NCBI GenBank assembly: GCA_965214705.1
Contig: CBDCCI010000002.1
Location: 1,536,001 to 1,600,000, forward strand
Direction: 5' to 3'
Source: Alphaproteobacteria bacterium
Lineage (GTDB): Bacteria; Pseudomonadota; Alphaproteobacteria; UBA828
DNA: 64,000 nt
A program made the position numbers and the translations under genes. Every line of letters starts with the position of its first letter. Position 1 is the first letter of the stretch. Of this stretch, positions 17,258 through 39,516 are shown in pieces. A model generated the notes under the pieces. The model saw only the letters and a list, made by a program, of their open reading frames with translations. It was not told the origin of the DNA and ran no database searches.

Positions 17258-17511
17258 CTCGCTCCTGCGGTCATGCTTGCTTGAACGAAGCCGCTACGCG
17301 GAGTTAGCGGCGTAGAGTTCATTCATTTCCGAGGCGTCGCGGGTGCCGTTTGTTCTGTGCGTTCGCTTCCCGGTTGCGTCAGTGGCGCTCCGCCCGTCGG
17401 GTGGCGGATCCCCAGCAGCCTCCCGATCACCAGTGGTTAGTATCGACCCCTGCGACGGACCGTCGCCGGATCGGTCCGGCGGCGCGCCGTCGCGATCCAG
17501 GGAGATCGATA

Positions 17512-18390
17512 ATGACCGGGACCGCGTGCGACACGAACACCGTCACCCCTCTTCGCCAGCGCATGGAGGAGCAGCTCCGCATCGCCAATCTGGCCGCGAG
17601 CACGTCCAAGGCCTACATCTGCGAGATCAAGAACCTGGCCAGGTACTACGACGCCTCGCCGGACGAGCTCGACGCCGAGCAGGTGCGCCAGTGGTACCTG
17701 GGGCGGATCGACAAGGGGCTCAGTCCGGGCACGACCAACGTCTCCTTCGCCGCGCTGAACTTCCTCTACATCGACACACTCGGCTGGCCTGACCATGTCG
17801 CCGGCCTGCGCTCCCGCAAGAAGCCCGGCAAGCTGCCGCGCTACATGTCGGAGCAGGAGGTCGAGCACCTCATCCTTGCGACACCCGACCTCCGCCACCG
17901 TGCTGCCATTGTCACCGGCTATGGCGGCGGGCTCCGCATCTCCGAGACCTTGGCCATCAAGGTCGGCGACATCCTGTCGGAGAAGAAGCTGCTGCACATC
18001 CCCTCCGGCAAAGGCGGCACCGAGAGAATGGCACCGTTGCCGGACATCGTCATCCACTACTTGCGCGTCTACTACAGGAACATCTGGCCGCGTCCGACGA
18101 GCTGGCTCTTCTACGGCGTCTCGCTCGACAGGCCCATCGCAACGGAGACCTTGCAGGCCGCCTTCAGGAGGGCGCGCGACATTGCCGAGCTCGACCGCAG
18201 CTACACCTTCCATTGCCTGCGCCATTCGGCGGCGACCCATCTCCTCGAGCGCGGCGGCGATATCGAGGTGATCCGGGACATGCTCGGCCATCGAAGCGCG
18301 AACACGACCCGTCACTACGCCCGCGTCACCGGCAAGATGTTCGAGGGCCTCGACCACCCGATCTCAGGCTTCGCAGCGTTGCGCAACTGA
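17512..18390 (+). CDS. Tyrosine recombinase / integrase with N-terminal SAM-like domain
   Basis: GLRISE, GKG, HCLRH, LGH, TRHY catalytic residues; ATG 17512 after AGGGAG. Confidence 0.92.
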   Translation: MTGTACDTNTVTPLRQRMEEQLRIANLAASTSKAYICEIKNLARYYDASPDELDAEQVRQWYLGRIDKGLSPGTTNVSFAALNFLYIDTLGWPDHVAGLRSRKKPGKLPRYMSEQEVEHLILATPDLRHRAAIVTGYGGGLRISETLAIKVGDILSEKKLLHIPSGKGGTERMAPLPDIVIHYLRVYYRNIWPRPTSWLFYGVSLDRPIATETLQAAFRRARDIAELDRSYTFHCLRHSAATHLLERGGDIEVIRDMLGHRSANTTRHYARVTGKMFEGLDHPISGFAALRN

Positions 18391-18396
18391 CGGCGC

Positions 18397-19638
18397 GTGG
18401 AGGCCGAACGCGCGGGCGTGGCGGAGATCTTCCGCCGCGCCGGCGCCGCTTTCCGTGAGCGCCACAAAGGGCGCATCGACGCCGCCCGGCTCAAGGTCAT
18501 GGGCGCCATCGAGGCGTGCCGCACCGCCGTGCTCGGCGGCCACATGTACGCCTGCGAGGGCTGCGGGCGCGAGCATCCGCTCTTCAACTCCTGCCGCAAC
18601 CGCCACTGCCCCACCTGCCAGGGTCTCGCCGCCAACCTCTGGAGCGAGGAGCGCGCCGGGGACATCCTGCCGGTGCCCTACTTCCATGTGGTCTTCACCC
18701 TGCCCAAGGAGGTTGCCGCCATTGCCTTCTGCAACCGCAGGGTGGTGTTCGACATCCTCTTCCGGGCCGTCGCCGAGACCCTGCGCACCATCGCCGCCGA
18801 TCCCCGCCACGGCGGCATGCGCATCGGCGGCACCGCGGTCCTCCATACCTGGGATCAGAAGCTCCGCTTCCACCCGCACCTGCACGTGGTCGTGCCCAAC
18901 GCGGGCTTCGACGTAGACAGTGGCGAGTGGAAGACGGGGAGCACCACCTTCCTCGCCCCCGTCAAGGTCCTCGGCAGCCTGTTCCGCCGCCTCTTCCTCG
19001 AGGAGCTCGCCCGCGCCCACGGCCGGGGGGACCTGGAGTTCCACGGCACCCTCGCCCACCTCGCCAATCCCGGCGAGTTCCACGCCACGCTTGCCGCCGC
19101 CCGGGCCAGGGACTGGGTGGTCTACGCCAAGCGGCCCTTCCGCGGGCCTGAGCAGGTCTTCCGGTACCTCTCGCACTACACGCACAGGATCGCCATCTCC
19201 GACAGCCGCATCGTCTCCTTCGACGGCGAGACGGTCTCCTTCCGCCACCGAAAGCCCAAGGCGCCGGGGCAGAGAAAGCCGCGCTACGGCATCGCCACCG
19301 TGAGCGCCGACGAGTTCATCCGCCGCTTCCTGAGGCACGTCCTGCCGGACGGCATGCACCGCATTCGCTACTTCGGCATCCTCGCCAACGGCTGCCGCGC
19401 CAGCACGCTGGAGAGAGCACGCCAGGCTCTCGGCGCCCTCGGCTGCGCCGCCCCCGAGGGAAGCGTGGACGGCGCTCGGGCCGAGCCCGACGAAGAGCCC
19501 GAGATCGGCACCGCGCCCGTGGCCTGCCCCCACTGCGGCGGCGTCATGCGCCTCGTCCGCGAAATCCGCCGCCGCCATGAGCCCCGCTCGACGCGCGGCC
19601 CGCCGGCGCTGCCGCCGACCCACAGGGGGAAACCGTGA
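18397..19638 (+). CDS. IS91-family rolling-circle (HUH, Y2) transposase with Zn-binding domain
   Basis: CEGC...NSCRNRHCPTCQ, HVVFTLP, HPHLH (HUH), YLSHY (YxxxY), RIRYFG, CPHC. Confidence 0.93.
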   Translation: MEAERAGVAEIFRRAGAAFRERHKGRIDAARLKVMGAIEACRTAVLGGHMYACEGCGREHPLFNSCRNRHCPTCQGLAANLWSEERAGDILPVPYFHVVFTLPKEVAAIAFCNRRVVFDILFRAVAETLRTIAADPRHGGMRIGGTAVLHTWDQKLRFHPHLHVVVPNAGFDVDSGEWKTGSTTFLAPVKVLGSLFRRLFLEELARAHGRGDLEFHGTLAHLANPGEFHATLAAARARDWVVYAKRPFRGPEQVFRYLSHYTHRIAISDSRIVSFDGETVSFRHRKPKAPGQRKPRYGIATVSADEFIRRFLRHVLPDGMHRIRYFGILANGCRASTLERARQALGALGCAAPEGSVDGARAEPDEEPEIGTAPVACPHCGGVMRLVREIRRRHEPRSTRGPPALPPTHRGKP

Positions 19639-19900
19639 GACGCCCGCTCGCTTCGGCCCCGCGCAACGGCGCCAAAGCGCCGACGCACGACCGAACCTGT
19701 CTCCGCTTGAGCCGGGCTGACAGCCCTCGGCTCACACCCCGCTCAGTCCTCGCAGCGTGCGCCCGCATGCCTGCCGAAAGACCGGCGCGAGCGTCGATTT
19801 TATGCGCAACTCTGCTGCCGGTGGATGCCGCCTGACGCTGACATCAGCGCACTTTCCACATAGCTCAACTTCGCCTCTCGTGGCCCGCGGCTTCGTTCAA

Positions 19901-19942
19901 AAGGGTTGGGCAGGCTCTCGAGAGAGAGCCTGCCCAACCCTT
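19901..19942. other. Perfect 19-bp hairpin near element right end (copy 1)
   Basis: AAGGGTTGGGCAGGCTCTC-GAGA-GAGAGCCTGCCCAACCCTT. Confidence 0.9.
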
Positions 19943-19945
19943 AAC

Positions 19946-22037
19946 CCGAACTTCCGTTAGCATCTGATTGCCGATCTGGCCGGATTTTGCCTGTTTCCGC
20001 CCTTTCTGCGCAGTTTAGCGCCCGGTTTGGCGCGAAATTCCCGAAATGATCGCCGAAACCGCCGCGATTCGGCGCTCCAGCGCTGGATCACGCCGTCCCG
20101 GCGCATCCACCAAAACCTGAATACTAGTCAGTAGATAGTTTTCTCGTTACGATAATTGCTCCGCATTCCCAAGCCTTTCCGATATGATTGCCGCGATTCG
20201 CTAGGCAGATCGATATGCACATCGAAACCACCCGGTCCGGAAACTCCCGCTGCCACCTCCTCAGACAGTCCTACTGGCAGGACGGAAAACCCAAGAAGCG
20301 CACCCTGTGCAACCTCTCCGCCCTCCCGGAACACGCCATCGAAGCCCTCAAACGCGCCCTCAAGCGCGGACCCGCCCTCAATCCCGACAGCGCCGACGTC
20401 GAACTGCGCGCCAGCCGGGCGCACGGCGCCGTCAGCGCCGTTCTCGGCACCCTTCGCGACATCGGCCTCGACCGCGTCATCTTCCACCGGCCCGATCGCC
20501 GCAGGGCCCTCGTCATCGCCATGATCGTCGCCCGCCTGATCCGGCCCGGCGCCAAGCTGCGCGTCGAGCGCGAACTGGGAGCGGCCGGCACAACCACCCT
20601 CGCCGCCCTGCTCGGCGTCGAAGGCGTCAGCGTCGACGAACTCTACGCCGCCATGGACTGGCTGGGCGCGCGACAGGGCGCGATCGAGCGCAAGCTCGCC
20701 CGGCGCCATCTCGGAGAGGACGATCTCGTCCTCTACGACGTGTCCTCGAGCTACATGGAGGGCAACGCCTGCCCCATGGCGAAGCGCGGCTATTCGAGGG
20801 ATCGCCGGGGCGACCGCCCGCAGATCGTCTACGGCCTCCTCTGCACCCGCGATGGCTGTCCGGTCTCGATCGAGGCCTTCGCCGGCAACACCGGCGACCC
20901 GATGACTCTGGCCAGCCAGGTGCGCAAGGTCCGCGACAGCTTCGGCATCCGGCGGGTGGTGTTGGTGGGGGACCGCGGCATGATCGCGCAGACCCGCATC
21001 GACCGCGACCTCGCGCCCAACGGCATCGACTGGATCACGGCGCTGCGCGCATCCTCGATCCGCAAGCTCGTCGACCGGGGGCATGTCACGCCCGGCCTGT
21101 TCGACACCTGGGGCCTCGCGCGGGTGACCACGCCGGACTATCCCGGCGAGAGGCTGATCGTCTGCTACAACCCGGTTCTGGCGGCCGAGCGCAAGCGCAA
21201 CCGCGACGGGCTGCTCAATGCGACCGAGACGGACGCGCGCGATTTCGCCGCGCGCCACGCCGCCGGCGACATCGACCGCGACGAGTTGAACCGTCGGCTG
21301 GGAACCTTGCGCCGCCGCAAGATGGCCAAGCACTTCCGCTTCGAATTCGACGAGGGCAGCGGCACCTTCAGTTGCGAACGCGACCGGGCGTCGATCGACG
21401 CCGAGGCCGCCCTCGACGGTCTCTACGTCATACGCACCAACGTGGACGAGGACGAGATCGAGGACGTCGAGGCGGTCCGCGTCTACAAGAGCCTGTCACG
21501 CGTCGAGCGCGCCTTCCGCTCGCTCAAGACGGTGTCGTTGCGGATCCGCCCGATCTTCCACTGGCGCGACGACCGAGTACGGGCGCATCTTCTGATCTGC
21601 ATGCTGGCTTGGTATGTCGAGTGGCACATGCGCCGCAGGCTGGCGCCGCTGCTGTTCGCCGAGGAGGACGGAGCGCCGCTGTCCGCGAACCCGGTGGCGC
21701 CGCCGGAACGCTCGGAAAAGGCCCGGCGCAAGGACAAGCGCCGAAAGACGGATGATGGACTTGCGGTGTGCGACTTCCGCGATCTCCTCGGCCATCTCGG
21801 CACGCTTGCTGCCACTGAGATCGCCACCGGAACCGACTTCGCCGTGCCCGCCCTGACCAAGCCGACCGAACTGCAGGAAAGGGCGTTCGCATTGCTCGGG
21901 CTGCGGCCCCATCCTGCGCCCGCGCTCACCGAAAAGGGGATGACCACCGCCAAACCTGTCCAGTAATCGTCGCTTCGAAACTCGCCGAAACCCCTGCCGC
22001 ACAACGGTTCTTTGACTATCCCACACTGGAAGTTCGG
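19946..22037 (+). mobile_element. IS1634-family insertion sequence (2092 bp)
   Basis: Terminal IRs CCGAACTTCC (19946-19955) / GGAAGTTCGG (22028-22037); 6-bp target duplication CTTAAC (19940-19945, 22038-22043). Confidence 0.92.
20215..21966 (+). CDS. IS1634-family DDE transposase
   Basis: LLRQSYW..GKPKKRTLCNLS, LYDVSSSY, GYSRD, VGDRGMI, VERAFRSLK, RPIFHW. Confidence 0.92.
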   Translation: MHIETTRSGNSRCHLLRQSYWQDGKPKKRTLCNLSALPEHAIEALKRALKRGPALNPDSADVELRASRAHGAVSAVLGTLRDIGLDRVIFHRPDRRRALVIAMIVARLIRPGAKLRVERELGAAGTTTLAALLGVEGVSVDELYAAMDWLGARQGAIERKLARRHLGEDDLVLYDVSSSYMEGNACPMAKRGYSRDRRGDRPQIVYGLLCTRDGCPVSIEAFAGNTGDPMTLASQVRKVRDSFGIRRVVLVGDRGMIAQTRIDRDLAPNGIDWITALRASSIRKLVDRGHVTPGLFDTWGLARVTTPDYPGERLIVCYNPVLAAERKRNRDGLLNATETDARDFAARHAAGDIDRDELNRRLGTLRRRKMAKHFRFEFDEGSGTFSCERDRASIDAEAALDGLYVIRTNVDEDEIEDVEAVRVYKSLSRVERAFRSLKTVSLRIRPIFHWRDDRVRAHLLICMLAWYVEWHMRRRLAPLLFAEEDGAPLSANPVAPPERSEKARRKDKRRKTDDGLAVCDFRDLLGHLGTLAATEIATGTDFAVPALTKPTELQERAFALLGLRPHPAPALTEKGMTTAKPVQ

Positions 22038-22130
22038 CTTAACCTTTGCCGTGTCTGTCGTCTGGTGCGGCGTGAGCCCTTCTCGTCGCGGCAGTGTACG
22101 ATACCGGCGGCCAATCGCAGGAGGAGACGA

Positions 22131-34891: not shown

Positions 34892-35166
34892 AGCGCCGGG
34901 TTCATTCCTGGTTGTTGATATATTGGAAACGACGGTGAACAATTGCTCGATTGTTGAATAATTCGGAATTGAACTTCTCATAAAATCGCTTGTCCTGTTG
35001 CCATCCGATCATGCACCAATTGTCCGCTGTGCGCATACGATCCGATGCCTCCATGTTCGAGCGGCTTGGGCACCCCACAGAGCTTGCATCAATTCCGTTG
35101 CCGACGACTTCACGGGTTCTTCCGGGTGGCGTGATTTCGGCTGGGGCGGGCGCAGGGTAGTTGCCG

Positions 35167-35891
35167 ATGCCTTCCAGGTACCGCGATATCGCCTTTGGTC
35201 CCGTAAGCACCCGGGTGAGTCGAGCCGTGGGCCGTTTCTTCGTCGGCACCCGCGCGGGGGCCACATCCATCGTTACGGCAGCGGTCGCGGTGATGTCGGT
35301 CGCAGGCTTTGCGTTTGTCACCGACCACATCTGGCTGATCGATCAGCGCGACGTGCTCAAGAACGCCGCCGATGCAGCTGCGATCGCTGCCACGCAGGAG
35401 ATGAATCGCCGGCTTATCCCCACTCCGGACATGAGCGAGGACGATCTGAAGACTGCCATTGCCCCCGTGGCGGAAAACTACATCAAGCTGAATCTCGCCT
35501 ATCTGCCGACTGACCGTCTCACCCGAGCCGAAGAGACGCTCACGGTGGCCGTCACGCCCGATCGCAACCTGGGCACGGTGGATGTGGCGACGACGGCGGA
35601 CCTCGGCGGCACGCTGTTCTCCCGGCATCTGCCGATCCTCAGCAACTACAAAGGGCCTGCAAAGGTCGGCATCCGTGCCGGCGTCGAGACCAGGGTGACA
35701 CCCGTCGAGGCCGTGCTCGCCATCGACGTGAGCATATCCATGCTAGCCAAGCTGGACGGAGGATTTCCGGACAAGGATATGAATGAGAAGAGCCGCATGG
35801 ACATCGTCAAGGACGCGGCCAAGGCACTCGTCAACATCCTCCGGCCCAACGAGCACAACCGCGTCGCGATCGGCGTCGTGCCGTGGCACTT
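35167..35891 (+). pseudogene. TadG-like pilus-associated vWA protein, 5' part (interrupted)
   Basis: Pilin-like GATSIV hydrophobic helix, LKNAADAAAIA, vWA MIDAS DVSISM, IGVVPWH then element junction; start codon uncertain. Confidence 0.8.
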
Positions 35892-36120
35892 GAACGAAGC
35901 CGCTACGCGGAGTTAGCGGCGTAGAGTTCATTCATTTCCGAGGCGTCGCGGGTGCCGTTTGTTCTGTGCGTTCGCTTCCCGGTTGCGTCAGTGGCGCTCC
36001 GCCCGTCGGGTGGCGGATCCCCAGCAGCCTCCCGATCACCAGTGGTTAGCATCGACCCCTGCGACGGACCGTCGCCGGATCGGTCCGGCGGCGCGCCGTC
36101 GCGATCCAGGGAGATCGATA

Positions 36121-36999
36121 ATGACCGGGACCGCGTGCGACACGAACACCGTCACCCCTCTTCGCCAGCGCATGGAGGAGCAGCTCCGCATCGCCAATCT
36201 GGCCGCGAGCACGTCCAAGGCCTACATCTGCGAGATCAAGAACCTGGCCAGGTACTACGACGCCTCGCCGGACGAGCTCGACGCCGAGCAGGTGCGCCAG
36301 TGGTACCTGGGGCGGATCGACAAGGGGCTCAGTCCGGGCACGACCAACGTCTCCTTCGCCGCGCTGAACTTCCTCTACATCGACACACTCGGCTGGCCTG
36401 ACCATGTCGCCGGCCTGCGCTCCCGCAAGAAGCCCGGCAAGCTGCCGCGCTACATGTCGGAGCAGGAGGTCGAGCACCTCATCCTTGCGACACCCGACCT
36501 CCGCCACCGTGCTGCCATTGTCACCGGCTATGGCGGCGGGCTCCGCATCTCCGAGACCTTGGCCATCAAGGTCGGCGACATCCTGTCGGAGAAGAAGCTG
36601 CTGCACATCCCCTCCGGCAAAGGCGGCACCGAGAGAATGGCACCGTTGCCGGACATCGTCATCCACTACTTGCGCGTCTACTACAGGAACATCTGGCCGC
36701 GTCCGACGAGCTGGCTCTTCTACGGCGTCTCGCTCGACAGGCCCATCGCAACGGAGACCTTGCAGGCCGCCTTCAGGAGGGCGCGCGACATTGCCGAGCT
36801 CGACCGCAGCTACACCTTCCATTGCCTGCGCCATTCGGCGGCGACCCATCTCCTCGAGCGCGGCGGCGATATCGAGGTGATCCGGGACATGCTCGGCCAT
36901 CGAAGCGCGAACACGACCCGTCACTACGCCCGCGTCACCGGCAAGATGTTCGAGGGCCTCGACCACCCGATCTCAGGCTTCGCAGCGTTGCGCAACTGA
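36121..36999 (+). CDS. Tyrosine recombinase / integrase
   Basis: Same protein as 17512-18390. Confidence 0.92.
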   Translation: MTGTACDTNTVTPLRQRMEEQLRIANLAASTSKAYICEIKNLARYYDASPDELDAEQVRQWYLGRIDKGLSPGTTNVSFAALNFLYIDTLGWPDHVAGLRSRKKPGKLPRYMSEQEVEHLILATPDLRHRAAIVTGYGGGLRISETLAIKVGDILSEKKLLHIPSGKGGTERMAPLPDIVIHYLRVYYRNIWPRPTSWLFYGVSLDRPIATETLQAAFRRARDIAELDRSYTFHCLRHSAATHLLERGGDIEVIRDMLGHRSANTTRHYARVTGKMFEGLDHPISGFAALRN

Positions 37000-37005
37000 C
37001 GGCGC

Positions 37006-38247
37006 GTGGAGGCCGAACGCGCGGGCGTGGCGGAGATCTTCCGCCGCGCCGGCGCCGCTTTCCGTGAGCGCCACAAAGGGCGCATCGACGCCGCCCGGCT
37101 CAAGGTCATGGGCGCCATCGAGGCGTGCCGCACCGCCGTGCTCGGCGGCCACATGTACGCCTGCGAGGGCTGCGGGCGCGAGCATCCGCTCTTCAACTCC
37201 TGCCGCAACCGCCACTGCCCCACCTGCCAGGGTCTCGCCGCCAACCTCTGGAGCGAGGAGCGCGCCGGGGACATCCTGCCGGTGCCCTACTTCCATGTGG
37301 TCTTCACCCTGCCCAAGGAGGTTGCCGCCATTGCCTTCTGCAACCGCAGGGTGGTGTTCGACATCCTCTTCCGGGCCGTCGCCGAGACCCTGCGCACCAT
37401 CGCCGCCGATCCCCGCCACGGCGGCATGCGCATCGGCGGCACCGCGGTCCTCCATACCTGGGATCAGAAGCTCCGCTTCCACCCGCACCTGCACGTGGTC
37501 GTGCCCAACGCGGGCTTCGACGTAGACAGTGGCGAGTGGAAGACGGGGAGCACCACCTTCCTCGCCCCCGTCAAGGTCCTCGGCAGCCTGTTCCGCCGCC
37601 TCTTCCTCGAGGAGCTCGCCCGCGCCCACGGCCGGGGGGACCTGGAGTTCCACGGCACCGTCGCCCACCTCGCCAATCCCGGCGAGTTCCACGCCACGCT
37701 TGCCGCCGCCCGGGCCAGGGACTGGGTGGTCTACGCCAAGCGGCCCTTCCGCGGGCCTGAGCAGGTCTTCCGGTACCTCTCGCACTACACGCACAGGATC
37801 GCCATCTCCGACAGCCGCATCGTCTCCTTCGACGGCGAGACGGTCTCCTTCCGCCACCGAAAGCCCAAGGCGCCGGGGCAGAGAAAGCCGCGCTACGGCA
37901 TCGCCACCGTGAGCGCCGACGAGTTCATCCGCCGCTTCCTGAGGCACGTCCTGCCGGACGGCATGCACCGCATTCGCTACTTCGGCATCCTCGCCAACGG
38001 CTGCCGCGCCAGCACGCTGGAGAGAGCACGCCAGGCTCTCGGCGCCCTCGGCTGCGCCGCCCCCGAGGGAAGCGTGGACGGCGCTCGGGCCGAGCCCGAC
38101 GAAGAGCCCGAGATCGGCACCGCGCCCGTGGCCTGCCCCCACTGCGGCGGCGTCATGCGCCTCGTCCGCGAAATCCGCCGCCGCCATGAGCCCCGCTCGA
38201 CGCGCGGCCCGCCGGCGCTGCCGCCGACCCACAGGGGGAAACCGTGA
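37006..38247 (+). CDS. IS91-family HUH/Y2 transposase
   Basis: Same as 18397-19638 except one L/V change. Confidence 0.93.
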   Translation: MEAERAGVAEIFRRAGAAFRERHKGRIDAARLKVMGAIEACRTAVLGGHMYACEGCGREHPLFNSCRNRHCPTCQGLAANLWSEERAGDILPVPYFHVVFTLPKEVAAIAFCNRRVVFDILFRAVAETLRTIAADPRHGGMRIGGTAVLHTWDQKLRFHPHLHVVVPNAGFDVDSGEWKTGSTTFLAPVKVLGSLFRRLFLEELARAHGRGDLEFHGTVAHLANPGEFHATLAAARARDWVVYAKRPFRGPEQVFRYLSHYTHRIAISDSRIVSFDGETVSFRHRKPKAPGQRKPRYGIATVSADEFIRRFLRHVLPDGMHRIRYFGILANGCRASTLERARQALGALGCAAPEGSVDGARAEPDEEPEIGTAPVACPHCGGVMRLVREIRRRHEPRSTRGPPALPPTHRGKP

Positions 38248-38558
38248 GACGCCCGCTCGCTTCGGCCCCGCGCAACGGCGCCAAAGCGCCGACGCACGAC
38301 CGAACCTGTCTCCGCTTGAGCCGGGCTGACAGCCCTCGGCTCACACCCCGCTCAGTCCTCGCAGCGTGCGCCCGCATGCCTGCCGAAAGACCGGCGCGAG
38401 CGTCGATTTTATGCGCAACTCTGCTGCCGGTGGATGCCGCCTGACGCTGACATCAGCGCACTTTCCACATAGCTCAACTTCGCCTCTCGTGGCCCGCGGC
38501 TTCGTTCAAAAGGGTTGGGCAGGCTCTCGAGAGAGAGCCTGCCCAACCCTTAACCTTT

Positions 38559-39516
38559 CACCGTGCGCCTTGCGGATGCGACGGCCACGGATTGGAGCAC
38601 CAAGCGCTGGGCGCGCTATCCGACAGAGCGAACCTACGGCGTGCCCTACGAATGCACTCCTTCGTTGAACACCTGCAAGCCGGACGCCATCAAGGCGGAA
38701 CTCCCGTCGTCTGCGCCGGAAGATTGGGACGGATGCCTCGACGGCCACCGCATGGGAGGCAGCGGAACCAGTGCAGCAAACCCCGCAGTGGCGGATCTCT
38801 TCACCACGCCGTCGGTCAATGCATTCTCTCAGGCGTACTATCCCTCCCTCTACGGGTTCCAATATGAGTGTTCTCCCTGGGACGCCATCGAAGACTACCC
38901 TTCCGATTTTTGGGACATGAGCTGCTACAATCCCTACGATCCCAACGACCTCCGTTCTGGCGATTATCGACCACAGTACGGTTGCGACGACACGGATCCG
39001 ACCATCCTTCCCTTGAGCACCGACCGCACCACCATCATCGGTGCCATAGACGGTCTCTCCGCCGACGGCTCGAAGACTTACTCCGCGCTCGGCGTGCTGT
39101 GGGGCCAACGCATGCTTCTGTCGTCGTGGCGGAGCGTGTGGGGAGGGACCGTTCATCCCGTGGACCCCGCCTCCGCCGACGGGAAGGGCGTCCGCAAGGT
39201 CATCGTTCTCCTCACCGACGGCTATGACTCCATCTGCGGTGACGATAATGTCGCCTGCACCGACAGCGCGATCGGCATATCGCGCACCGACGCGTGCACG
39301 CTGGCGAAGAACGCGGGGATCGAGATCTTTGTCGTGGCGGCCATGCACCCGGACTACGTCTCGACCGATTTCGGGACATCGCTGACCGAATGCTCCAGCG
39401 AATCCGACGACTCGGACGAAACTTACGCGTTTCTCAACAATGCGACCTCGGAGAGCCTTCAGACCGCGTTCGAGAGCATTGCGAACCAGTTGCGGGTCGT
39501 CCGGCGAACTCACTGA
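38559..39516 (+). pseudogene. TadG-like vWA protein, 3' part
   Basis: Cys-rich insert, GSKTYSALGVLWG, KVIVLLTDG, CTLAKNAGIEIFVV, LQTAFESIANQL; in frame with the 5' part once the element is removed. Confidence 0.82.

Follow-up and report, generated by a model that had tools for sequence, protein, structure and literature searches.

Which enzyme inserts a mobile element that encodes two candidates for this task? The question is raised by a 2.67-kb element, which sits within a Tad/TadG-like host gene at positions 35890–38558 of a 64,000-nucleotide stretch of DNA (hereafter the window) from an Alphaproteobacteria bacterium of the lineage UBA828 (assembly GCA_965214705.1, contig CBDCCI010000002.1, positions 1,536,001 to 1,600,000 of the forward strand). 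The element carries the gene of a tyrosine recombinase (integrase) followed by the gene of an IS91-family Y2 HUH transposase, and it is a member of the catalogued integrase-carrying IS91 kind, with a variant target rule. The sequence-only reading of the window had offered a hybrid scheme, in which the HUH enzyme makes a circle and the recombinase inserts it through a TT crossover. The outline of this scheme held when the logo of all targets, the place of the break and the dif-like sites of a sister family (family C) were taken together, while the TT crossover core had to be given up. The same three lines of evidence suggest that the choice of the target, and probably also the joining of the DNA, is the work of the tyrosine recombinase. 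With about an even chance of being right, we describe the element as a two-enzyme rolling-circle insertion sequence: its HUH enzyme would produce a circle of single-stranded DNA whose junction forms a hairpin, and its integrase would insert this circle by the exchange of one strand.

The boundaries of the mobile unit were fixed from all copies in the genome (7.9 Mb in three contigs, the window lying on contig 3), which contains 94 left and 86 right ends of the element and 54 uninterrupted copies. All left ends read GAACGAAGCCGC, TT precedes 90 of the 94, and the right end is ...CCCTTAACC genome-wide. After the right end the 86 paired copies have TT in 63 cases, another insertion sequence in nine and CT, GA or AT in the remainder. 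The copy that interrupts the Tad/TadG-like gene (copy 2 of the window) has an uninterrupted empty site in a 98%-identical relative (G006, L032), where the sequence ...GTGGCAC|TTCACCGTG directly displays the single TT that had been reconstructed beforehand; a second ortholog (G017, L033) has equal length at this site. Compared with it, copy 2 is a 2667-bp insertion made of TT, the core and one extra T. As defined by all ends and empty sites, the inserted unit TTGAAC...CCCTTAACC (2666 bp) occupies positions 35890–38555 of the plus strand, to which all features below belong, and the extra T at its right tip, evident from the orthologous site CAC|TTCACC, is at 38556.

Eighteen copies lying in other repeats provided paralogous empty sites (at least 47 of 50 bases matching, ungapped). 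In 16 of them the insertion is exactly TT+GAAC..AACC (2666 bp), one has one additional T and one has two; none of the 18 fits an origin of both TTs from the target. Three targets that had no TT at the break (two paralogous ones and one copy nested in another copy) have TT on the left only, so that the left TT must be part of the element. No target bases are duplicated in any of the 18 paralogous sites or in the orthologous one. The mobile unit is TTGAAC...AACC, the left TT belongs to it and nothing is duplicated. A 3-bp duplication of CTT was also considered and rejected, since the tail always ends in C, while 38 of 76 targets have T, A or G at −1. Flanking by TT on both sides, noticed in the window, is thus true for most copies, but on the left it is the element's own (90/94) and on the right it is found in 63 of 76 targets. 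The right end had been placed one T too far (...AACCT), because both copies of the window happen to read AACC followed by TTT. Such a TTT is a minority feature, present in 15 of the 86 paired copies, and all three TTT copies with a known empty site, copy 2 among them, carry one or two extra T. A lineage comparison of the copies was uninformative about the extra T, single-nucleotide polymorphisms (SNPs) being reticulate and TTT copies scattered.

The target logo was built from 76 targets, which formed 72 clusters after grouping of similar ones (nine copies with a split tip and one tandem copy were excluded). Its consensus is a degenerate palindrome, CGnnCAA-N6-|TTGnnCG. After the break, the 72 clusters have T in 59, T in 69 and G in 36, then n, c, C in 51 (+6), G in 42 (+7) and G in 33. 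Against a base frequency of 0.17, the presence of T at +1 and +2 in 59 and 69 of 72 independent targets is not due to chance, which is excluded as the source of the TT preference. Before the break, position −1 is a pyrimidine in 59 of 72 (62 of 76 ungrouped), and pyrimidines are preferred at −2 as well. Further out, A is found at −8 in 35/72 (p = 3e-9) and at −7 in 34/72 (p = 1e-8), accompanied by C or G at −10, and the mirror positions predicted after this AA had been seen, C at −13 and G at −12, were registered in 34/72 each (p = 0.01). Folding of the target into a hairpin was rejected: complementarity between mirror positions does not exceed that of shuffles, and in the absence of covariation the symmetry is read as sequence. 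In copy 2 the right half-site (consensus TTGnnCG) is TTCACCG at 38557–38563, and the left one (consensus CGnnCAA) is CGTGCCG at 35877–35883, a weak match.

The target, thus, has two inverted arms and a 6-bp spacer, and the break is situated at the border of arm and spacer, 5′ of TT. This border is where Xer enzymes cut. The spacer is not conserved across the targets and does not match the element junction, and the left half-site of the target is unlike the element's own double-stranded junction, so that a transposase recognising nothing but its own ends would not account for it. Such Xer-site-like targets suggest that the integrase chooses the landing place. The departure from IS91 target rules that the sequence-only reading had put forward is real as far as the motif TT.. 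and the second, mirrored half-site are concerned, but it was overstated, since the left end still mimics the target and no duplication is made. Canonical GAAC-type targets proved rare in the logos over all copies (GAA starts the right flank in 3/76 and CAAG in none, so that the origin flank is not of the GAAC/CAAG type), and the flanking right TT is missing in 13 of 76.

Family C from the same genome bears on the source of the target specificity. It is 2.6 kb long, consists of an integrase and an IS91 transposase (34% and 40% identical to those of the main element, respectively) and is represented by 11 left and 11 right ends. Its left end (T/C)TGAAC... has an inverse copy, followed by a hairpin with a 13-bp stem and a 7-nt tail. 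The left flanks are ACATA(A/G)-N6 in 6 of 11 cases (two of them paralogous) and the right ones (T/C)TA(T/C)GT in 8 of 11, which corresponds to sites of the form ACATAA-N6-TTATGT. The sole CATAA-N6-TTATG of the genome is found at position 1,885,743 of contig 3 (G000:C3:1885743), at the maximum of the cumulative GC skew of this contig, and because of this location it is probably the chromosomal dif; no intact CATAA-N6-TTATG was present on the other two contigs. The flanks of family C match the core of the probable dif, and among the two families it is the clearer case of a target with two inverted arms and a 6-bp spacer. Its target arm (ACATAA) differs from its left end, and a transposase recognising one sequence at its own end and in the target would not yield such targets. 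Further copies of family C were sought in 48 other genomes of the order, and none was found. In the genome itself it resides at G000:C1:1526487-1529101 (L120, L121) and in 10 other places, many of the sites being in 20-bp palindromic repeats, for instance TTATGT-N8-ACATAA; in three cases the copy directly adjoins the main element at its right end.

The recombinase of the window copy (292 aa, 36121–36999) has the Pfam domains Phage_integrase and Phage_int_SAM_4 (PF13495) and falls into the Xer/IntI clade. Its NCBIfam scores (XerA 143.6, XerC 134.4, IntI 130.2 and XerD 118 bits) reach none of the cut-offs (220–335), and judging by its sequence it is a relative, not an ortholog, of XerA, XerC, XerD and IntI. 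IntI profiles match it in two stretches with the middle absent, that is, the IntI-specific inserted domain is missing. Its catalytic R, K, H-x-x-R, H and Y all align with those of XerA (4a8e) and XerD (1a0p). According to 10.1101/542381, recombinases 'found in IS91' are grouped with integron integrases and lack the IntI insertion. The IS91-family Y2 HUH transposase (413 aa, 37006–38247) contains the Pfam domains Zn_Tnp_IS91 (PF14319) and Y2_Tnp (PF04986), scores 382 bits against NCBIfam NF033538 (cut-off 125) and has the motifs HLH and YLSHY in its translation. Its start lies six bases beyond the integrase stop (36999) on the same strand. Both open reading frames are open in 54 of 54 uninterrupted copies, and of 80 related loci 69 have the integrase gene directly ahead of the transposase gene, six lack it and five are on contigs too short for a decision.

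The two ends of the element carry related sequences. The left end TTGAACGAAGCCGC (35890–35903, the same in 94/94 left ends), the proposed right arm of a folded junction with the break just 5′ of it, recurs inverted as GCGGCTTCGTTCAA at 38496–38509, just ahead of the terminal hairpin, so that its TT pairs with an internal AA. The 19-bp stem of the hairpin (38510–38551) contains another arm-like motif (TTGGGCA / TGCCCAA), and the tail AACC (38552–38555) comes after the hairpin. When the two ends of the window copy were joined by a script and folded with DNA parameters, the predicted fold of either strand consisted of a 14-bp outer stem formed by the left end and its inverted copy, a 4-nt bulge (AACC or GGTT) and a 19-bp inner stem, with an energy of −46.6 kcal/mol. 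When the strand complementary to the coding one is read, the break falls at ...GTTCAA|GGTT, i.e. the arm comes before the spacer, which is the polarity expected of a tyrosine recombinase. By analogy, the same strand is the one that IS91-type copying would displace (origin right, end left), as described in PMC3189936. The second arm-like motif of the inner stem is separated from the outer arm by 5 nt on one side and by 9 nt on the other, and a distance of 9 bp separates the arms when the junction is double-stranded. A circle junction was sought in four sets of assembled public contigs, and none was found beyond a 10-letter loose end fitting a tandem junction already present in the genome; none of the same contigs joined across the element. 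The two copies of this head-to-tail tandem (L119 88-166; G000:C2:646567-646645) meet in a perfect palindrome, in which the 4-nt bulge is copied to the opposite side (GGTT added) and the loop is inverted.

Relatives of the element made it possible to compare tails and targets. The closer ones (family B of the same genome, L039, L049 and clusters D and E of other Alphaproteobacteria; transposase 68–82% identical) share the left end TTGAACGAAGCC, its inverse copy and the hairpin, but for their tail, which ends ...AAGA; TT follows it in 14 of 14 cases. Clusters G and F-J were left out of the logos, their ends being not fixed well enough. For tails ending in GA the target base at −1 is a purine in 11 of 11 cases, while family A, i.e. 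the main element with its tail CC, has a purine there in 14 of 76 (Fisher 1.6e-7). The transferred strand begins with G in family A and with T in the closer relatives. Judged from these letters, C/T opposite G and A/G opposite T is the pattern expected of pairing with wobble, and it would fit a short homology check during a strand swap. Across the families, the two bases before the break (−2 and −1) match the last bases of the element tail. Distant relatives with about 48% identical transposases (L059, L062-L065, L069, L079, L083, L098, L100, L105, L108, L110 and L113) start at GAAC without a constant TT, end with ...CCCTCAACA and, in the several uncultured Alphaproteobacteria that harbour them, sit in palindromic repeats such as ATGTCG...CGACAT.

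One can assume the following course of events. At the right end, where the hairpin is, the Y2 HUH transposase would nick the strand that lies opposite the genes, and rolling-circle copying would displace the nicked strand as a single-stranded circle; a nick made occasionally 1–2 nt into the flank would account for the extra T. In the circle the two ends would meet and fold into the 14-bp stem of the left end with its inverted copy, the 4-nt bulge and the 19-bp hairpin, and this folded junction may be likened to a folded attC or to the CTX-phage attachment site. The element's Xer/IntI-like integrase would bind this fold together with a double-stranded dif-like target, cut both of them on this strand after ...CAA, at the arm/spacer border, and swap one strand, and pairing with target positions −1/−2 would serve as a check of the GG with which the incoming strand begins. 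Replication would then resolve the junction, and for this reason no duplication would appear. Since the spacer is not shared between the element and its targets, two-strand exchange is unlikely and only one-strand exchange fits. In its boldest form, which we rate at somewhat less than an even chance, the element would be a self-contained 'single-strand integron', in which the HUH enzyme only makes the circle and the attC-like junction is pasted into pseudo-dif sites by the element's own IntI/Xer-like recombinase through one-strand exchange under a 2-nt pairing check.

A number of observations weigh against insertion by the integrase. In the folded junction the arms are separated by 5 nt on one side and by 9 nt on the other instead of 6, and no circle was seen in the public data (assembled contigs only). 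The left half-site is weak: AA at −8 and −7 occurs jointly in only 20 of 72 targets and is absent in copy 2. The sample of family C is small, and several of its flanks come from one repeat family. The classical IS91 model predicts the right half-site and the lack of duplication just as well, and the HUH enzyme must cut at or near the same two borders and so could cut the target too. The one-strand pathways of integrons and CTX phage serve here as the basis of analogy only. Finally, copies having A at element base 1717 (transposase gene, first codon position) show non-TT right flanks in 6 of 11 cases against 2 of 34 other young copies by recount (p = 0.001 when tested with 2/36), which hints that the transposase affects the right junction. 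This base is one of three SNP positions (818, 1717 and 2195, counted from G of GAAC, i.e. 36710, 37609 and 38087 of the window), whose patterns are reticulate, as if copies recombine.

The last association is one of the grounds for considering classical IS91 transposition by the HUH enzyme alone, which we regard as a serious rival, though a less likely one than insertion by the integrase. The integrase would then be accessory, serving, for instance, multimer resolution or regulation, and the transposase would cut after ...CAA at the origin flank, the left end and the target and insert the displaced strand itself. Topology as in IS801/IS91, the lack of duplication and a left end mimicking the target are all in line with it (PMC3189936); the additional T of some right tips points to imprecise nicking, tandem copies do exist, and three of the 76 flanks start with GAA, as the canonical target does. 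Yet the mirrored left half-site 6 bp away, for which no covariation was registered, is left unexplained, as are the dif-like target of family C, unlike the left end of this family, and the pairing-like tracking of the tail base by target −1. Nor does this explanation account for the fact that the integrase gene is so tightly linked, being kept in 69 of the 80 loci.

We consider it improbable that the integrase or host XerCD excises and integrates double-stranded DNA in the manner of a small integrative element, the HUH enzyme only replicating the circle. The dif-like geometry of the target and the complete active site of the integrase speak for such a pathway, but two-strand exchange needs a shared overlap of 6–8 bp, and the target spacer is unconserved and unlike the element junction. 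The 9-bp distance between the arms of the double-stranded junction, the additional T of some right tips, which speaks against precise excision, and the dissimilarity of family A targets (CAA-N6-TTG) to the probable host dif also disagree with it. The literal proposal of the sequence-only reading, i.e. TT as a 2-bp duplication or a shared crossover core, has hardly any probability left: most copies do have TT on both sides and the empty site has one, but none of the 18 empty sites fits it, targets without TT receive TT on the left only, 13 of 76 right flanks lack TT against 90 of 94 left ends having it, the TT of the left end is paired within the element's own 14-bp stem, and a 2-bp crossover is a trait of serine rather than tyrosine recombinases.

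In the window the element splits the Tad/TadG-like gene into a 5′ part at 35161–35889 and a continuation at 38557–39516, and this gene is uninterrupted in G006 and G017. Copy 1 (17281–19946) likewise reads AACC+TTT, but its right tip is separated by a 2.1-kb insertion sequence at 19947–22043, the severed tip CTTAACC being located at 22038-22044 and followed by TTTGCCGTG. This insertion sequence, with the ends CGAACTTCC.../...GGAAGTTCG, has 15 full copies genome-wide; in nine copies of the element, including the one at 19947–22043, it is inserted 7 bp from the right tip and flanked there by duplicated CTTAACC. A further 17 copies of the element (e.g. G000:C1:39433-41081) are broken at the identical base 1306, within the transposase gene, by a 1.65-kb insert and have differing outer flanks, and in another four a longer insert is present near base 1295. 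Either the spot at base 1306 is the target of a second element, or broken copies are still mobilised in trans.

Altogether the element makes up about 3% of this genome packed with insertion sequences, and in public contigs its depth is about 90 times that of the flanks. It was not found in 20 other species of the genus, two of which have an 80% relative; its expansion is, therefore, recent and local. A plasmid collection yielded only partial matches (74–90% identity) to genes annotated as IS91 family transposase. Orientation of copies relative to the direction of replication, estimated from GC skew, was 27 co-oriented against 42 anti-oriented (p = 0.09), the skew being weak and the genome rearranged.

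How far does this element depart from known systems? In the IS91 model, as given in PMC5714925 and PMC3189936, there are no inverted repeats and no duplication, the intermediate is a single-stranded circle, targets are GAAC/GGAC/CAAG/CGAC and the left end starts with GAAC; for IS801 the latter source describes a left end that copies the target motif and no duplication. The left end TTGAACG of our element copies the target motif TTGnnCG and thus follows the IS801-type rule. With IS91, IS801 and IS1294 it shares the transposase family, the lack of duplication, a left end that imitates the target motif, GAAC after TT, a hairpin downstream of the transposase gene and tandems. Unlike them, it carries a tyrosine recombinase gene, has TT(G) instead of GAAC/CAAG in the origin flank (63/76 versus 3/76), is broken 2 nt further out than the GAAC-ended elements, has a second mirrored half-site in the target and bears its left end inverted beside the hairpin. 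Other integrase-carrying members of IS91 presumably include ISAzo26, ISMno23 and ISSod25. ISShvi3 has the same two-gene layout and, in PMC9229058, is an IS91-like element adjoining an attC site; recombinases of this kind are described as near to integron integrases and devoid of the IntI insertion. That such elements are catalogued, and that a clear description of the division of labour between their enzymes is not known, had been stated from the outset, and a full-text literature search, with ISfinder and TnPedia outside its scope, likewise returned no printed account of target rules or enzyme roles in them.

Integron cassettes resemble the element in that the unit begins with TT, purines and a pyrimidine (TTGAAC in the element), has a hairpin at its end and is followed by the target's own TT, with the break just 5′ of TT. 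The integron core is TTRRRY, and TTGAAC fits it. By analogy, a folded single strand as the substrate and one-strand exchange resolved by replication would fit as well. The element differs from integrons in a recombinase without the IntI-specific domain, in targets that are neither attC nor attI, in a single strand that would be supplied by its own HUH enzyme and in the base before the break, which is C/T and not G. Phages of the CTX type that integrate at dif are similar in two inverted arms, a 6-bp spacer and the cut at the arm border, and would share with the element a folded single-stranded partner and the need for replication; PMC9345347 treats both integron and CTX integration as replication-dependent insertions by tyrosine recombinases. 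In contrast to them, the element has its own recombinase instead of host XerCD, many degenerate targets instead of one dif and is an insertion sequence rather than a phage. With IS200/IS605 elements (Y1 HUH, 'peel and paste') it would have in common the single-stranded circle, subterminal hairpins, the lack of duplication and the target beside one end; that family, however, has no recombinase partner and reads its target by guide pairing, while in our element the pairing signal is on the transferred strand and lies 3′ to the cut.

Genes for virulence and resistance are mobilised by IS91-type elements and the related ISCR elements, whose chemistry is still largely a model; for the large subgroup with an extra integrase, no description of the role of this enzyme was found in the literature. 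About 90 near-identical copies with 76 readable targets form a rich natural data set, which makes the role of the integrase directly testable. If the integrase does not paste, we are dealing with an ordinary relative of IS91 whose target motif has shifted. If it does, rolling-circle replication by an HUH enzyme and single-strand tyrosine recombination would be coupled in one small element, which bears on the origin of integrons. Should the element be a true single-strand integron, elements of this kind could mark the origin of integron single-strand chemistry, their recombinases being the nearest relatives of integron integrases.

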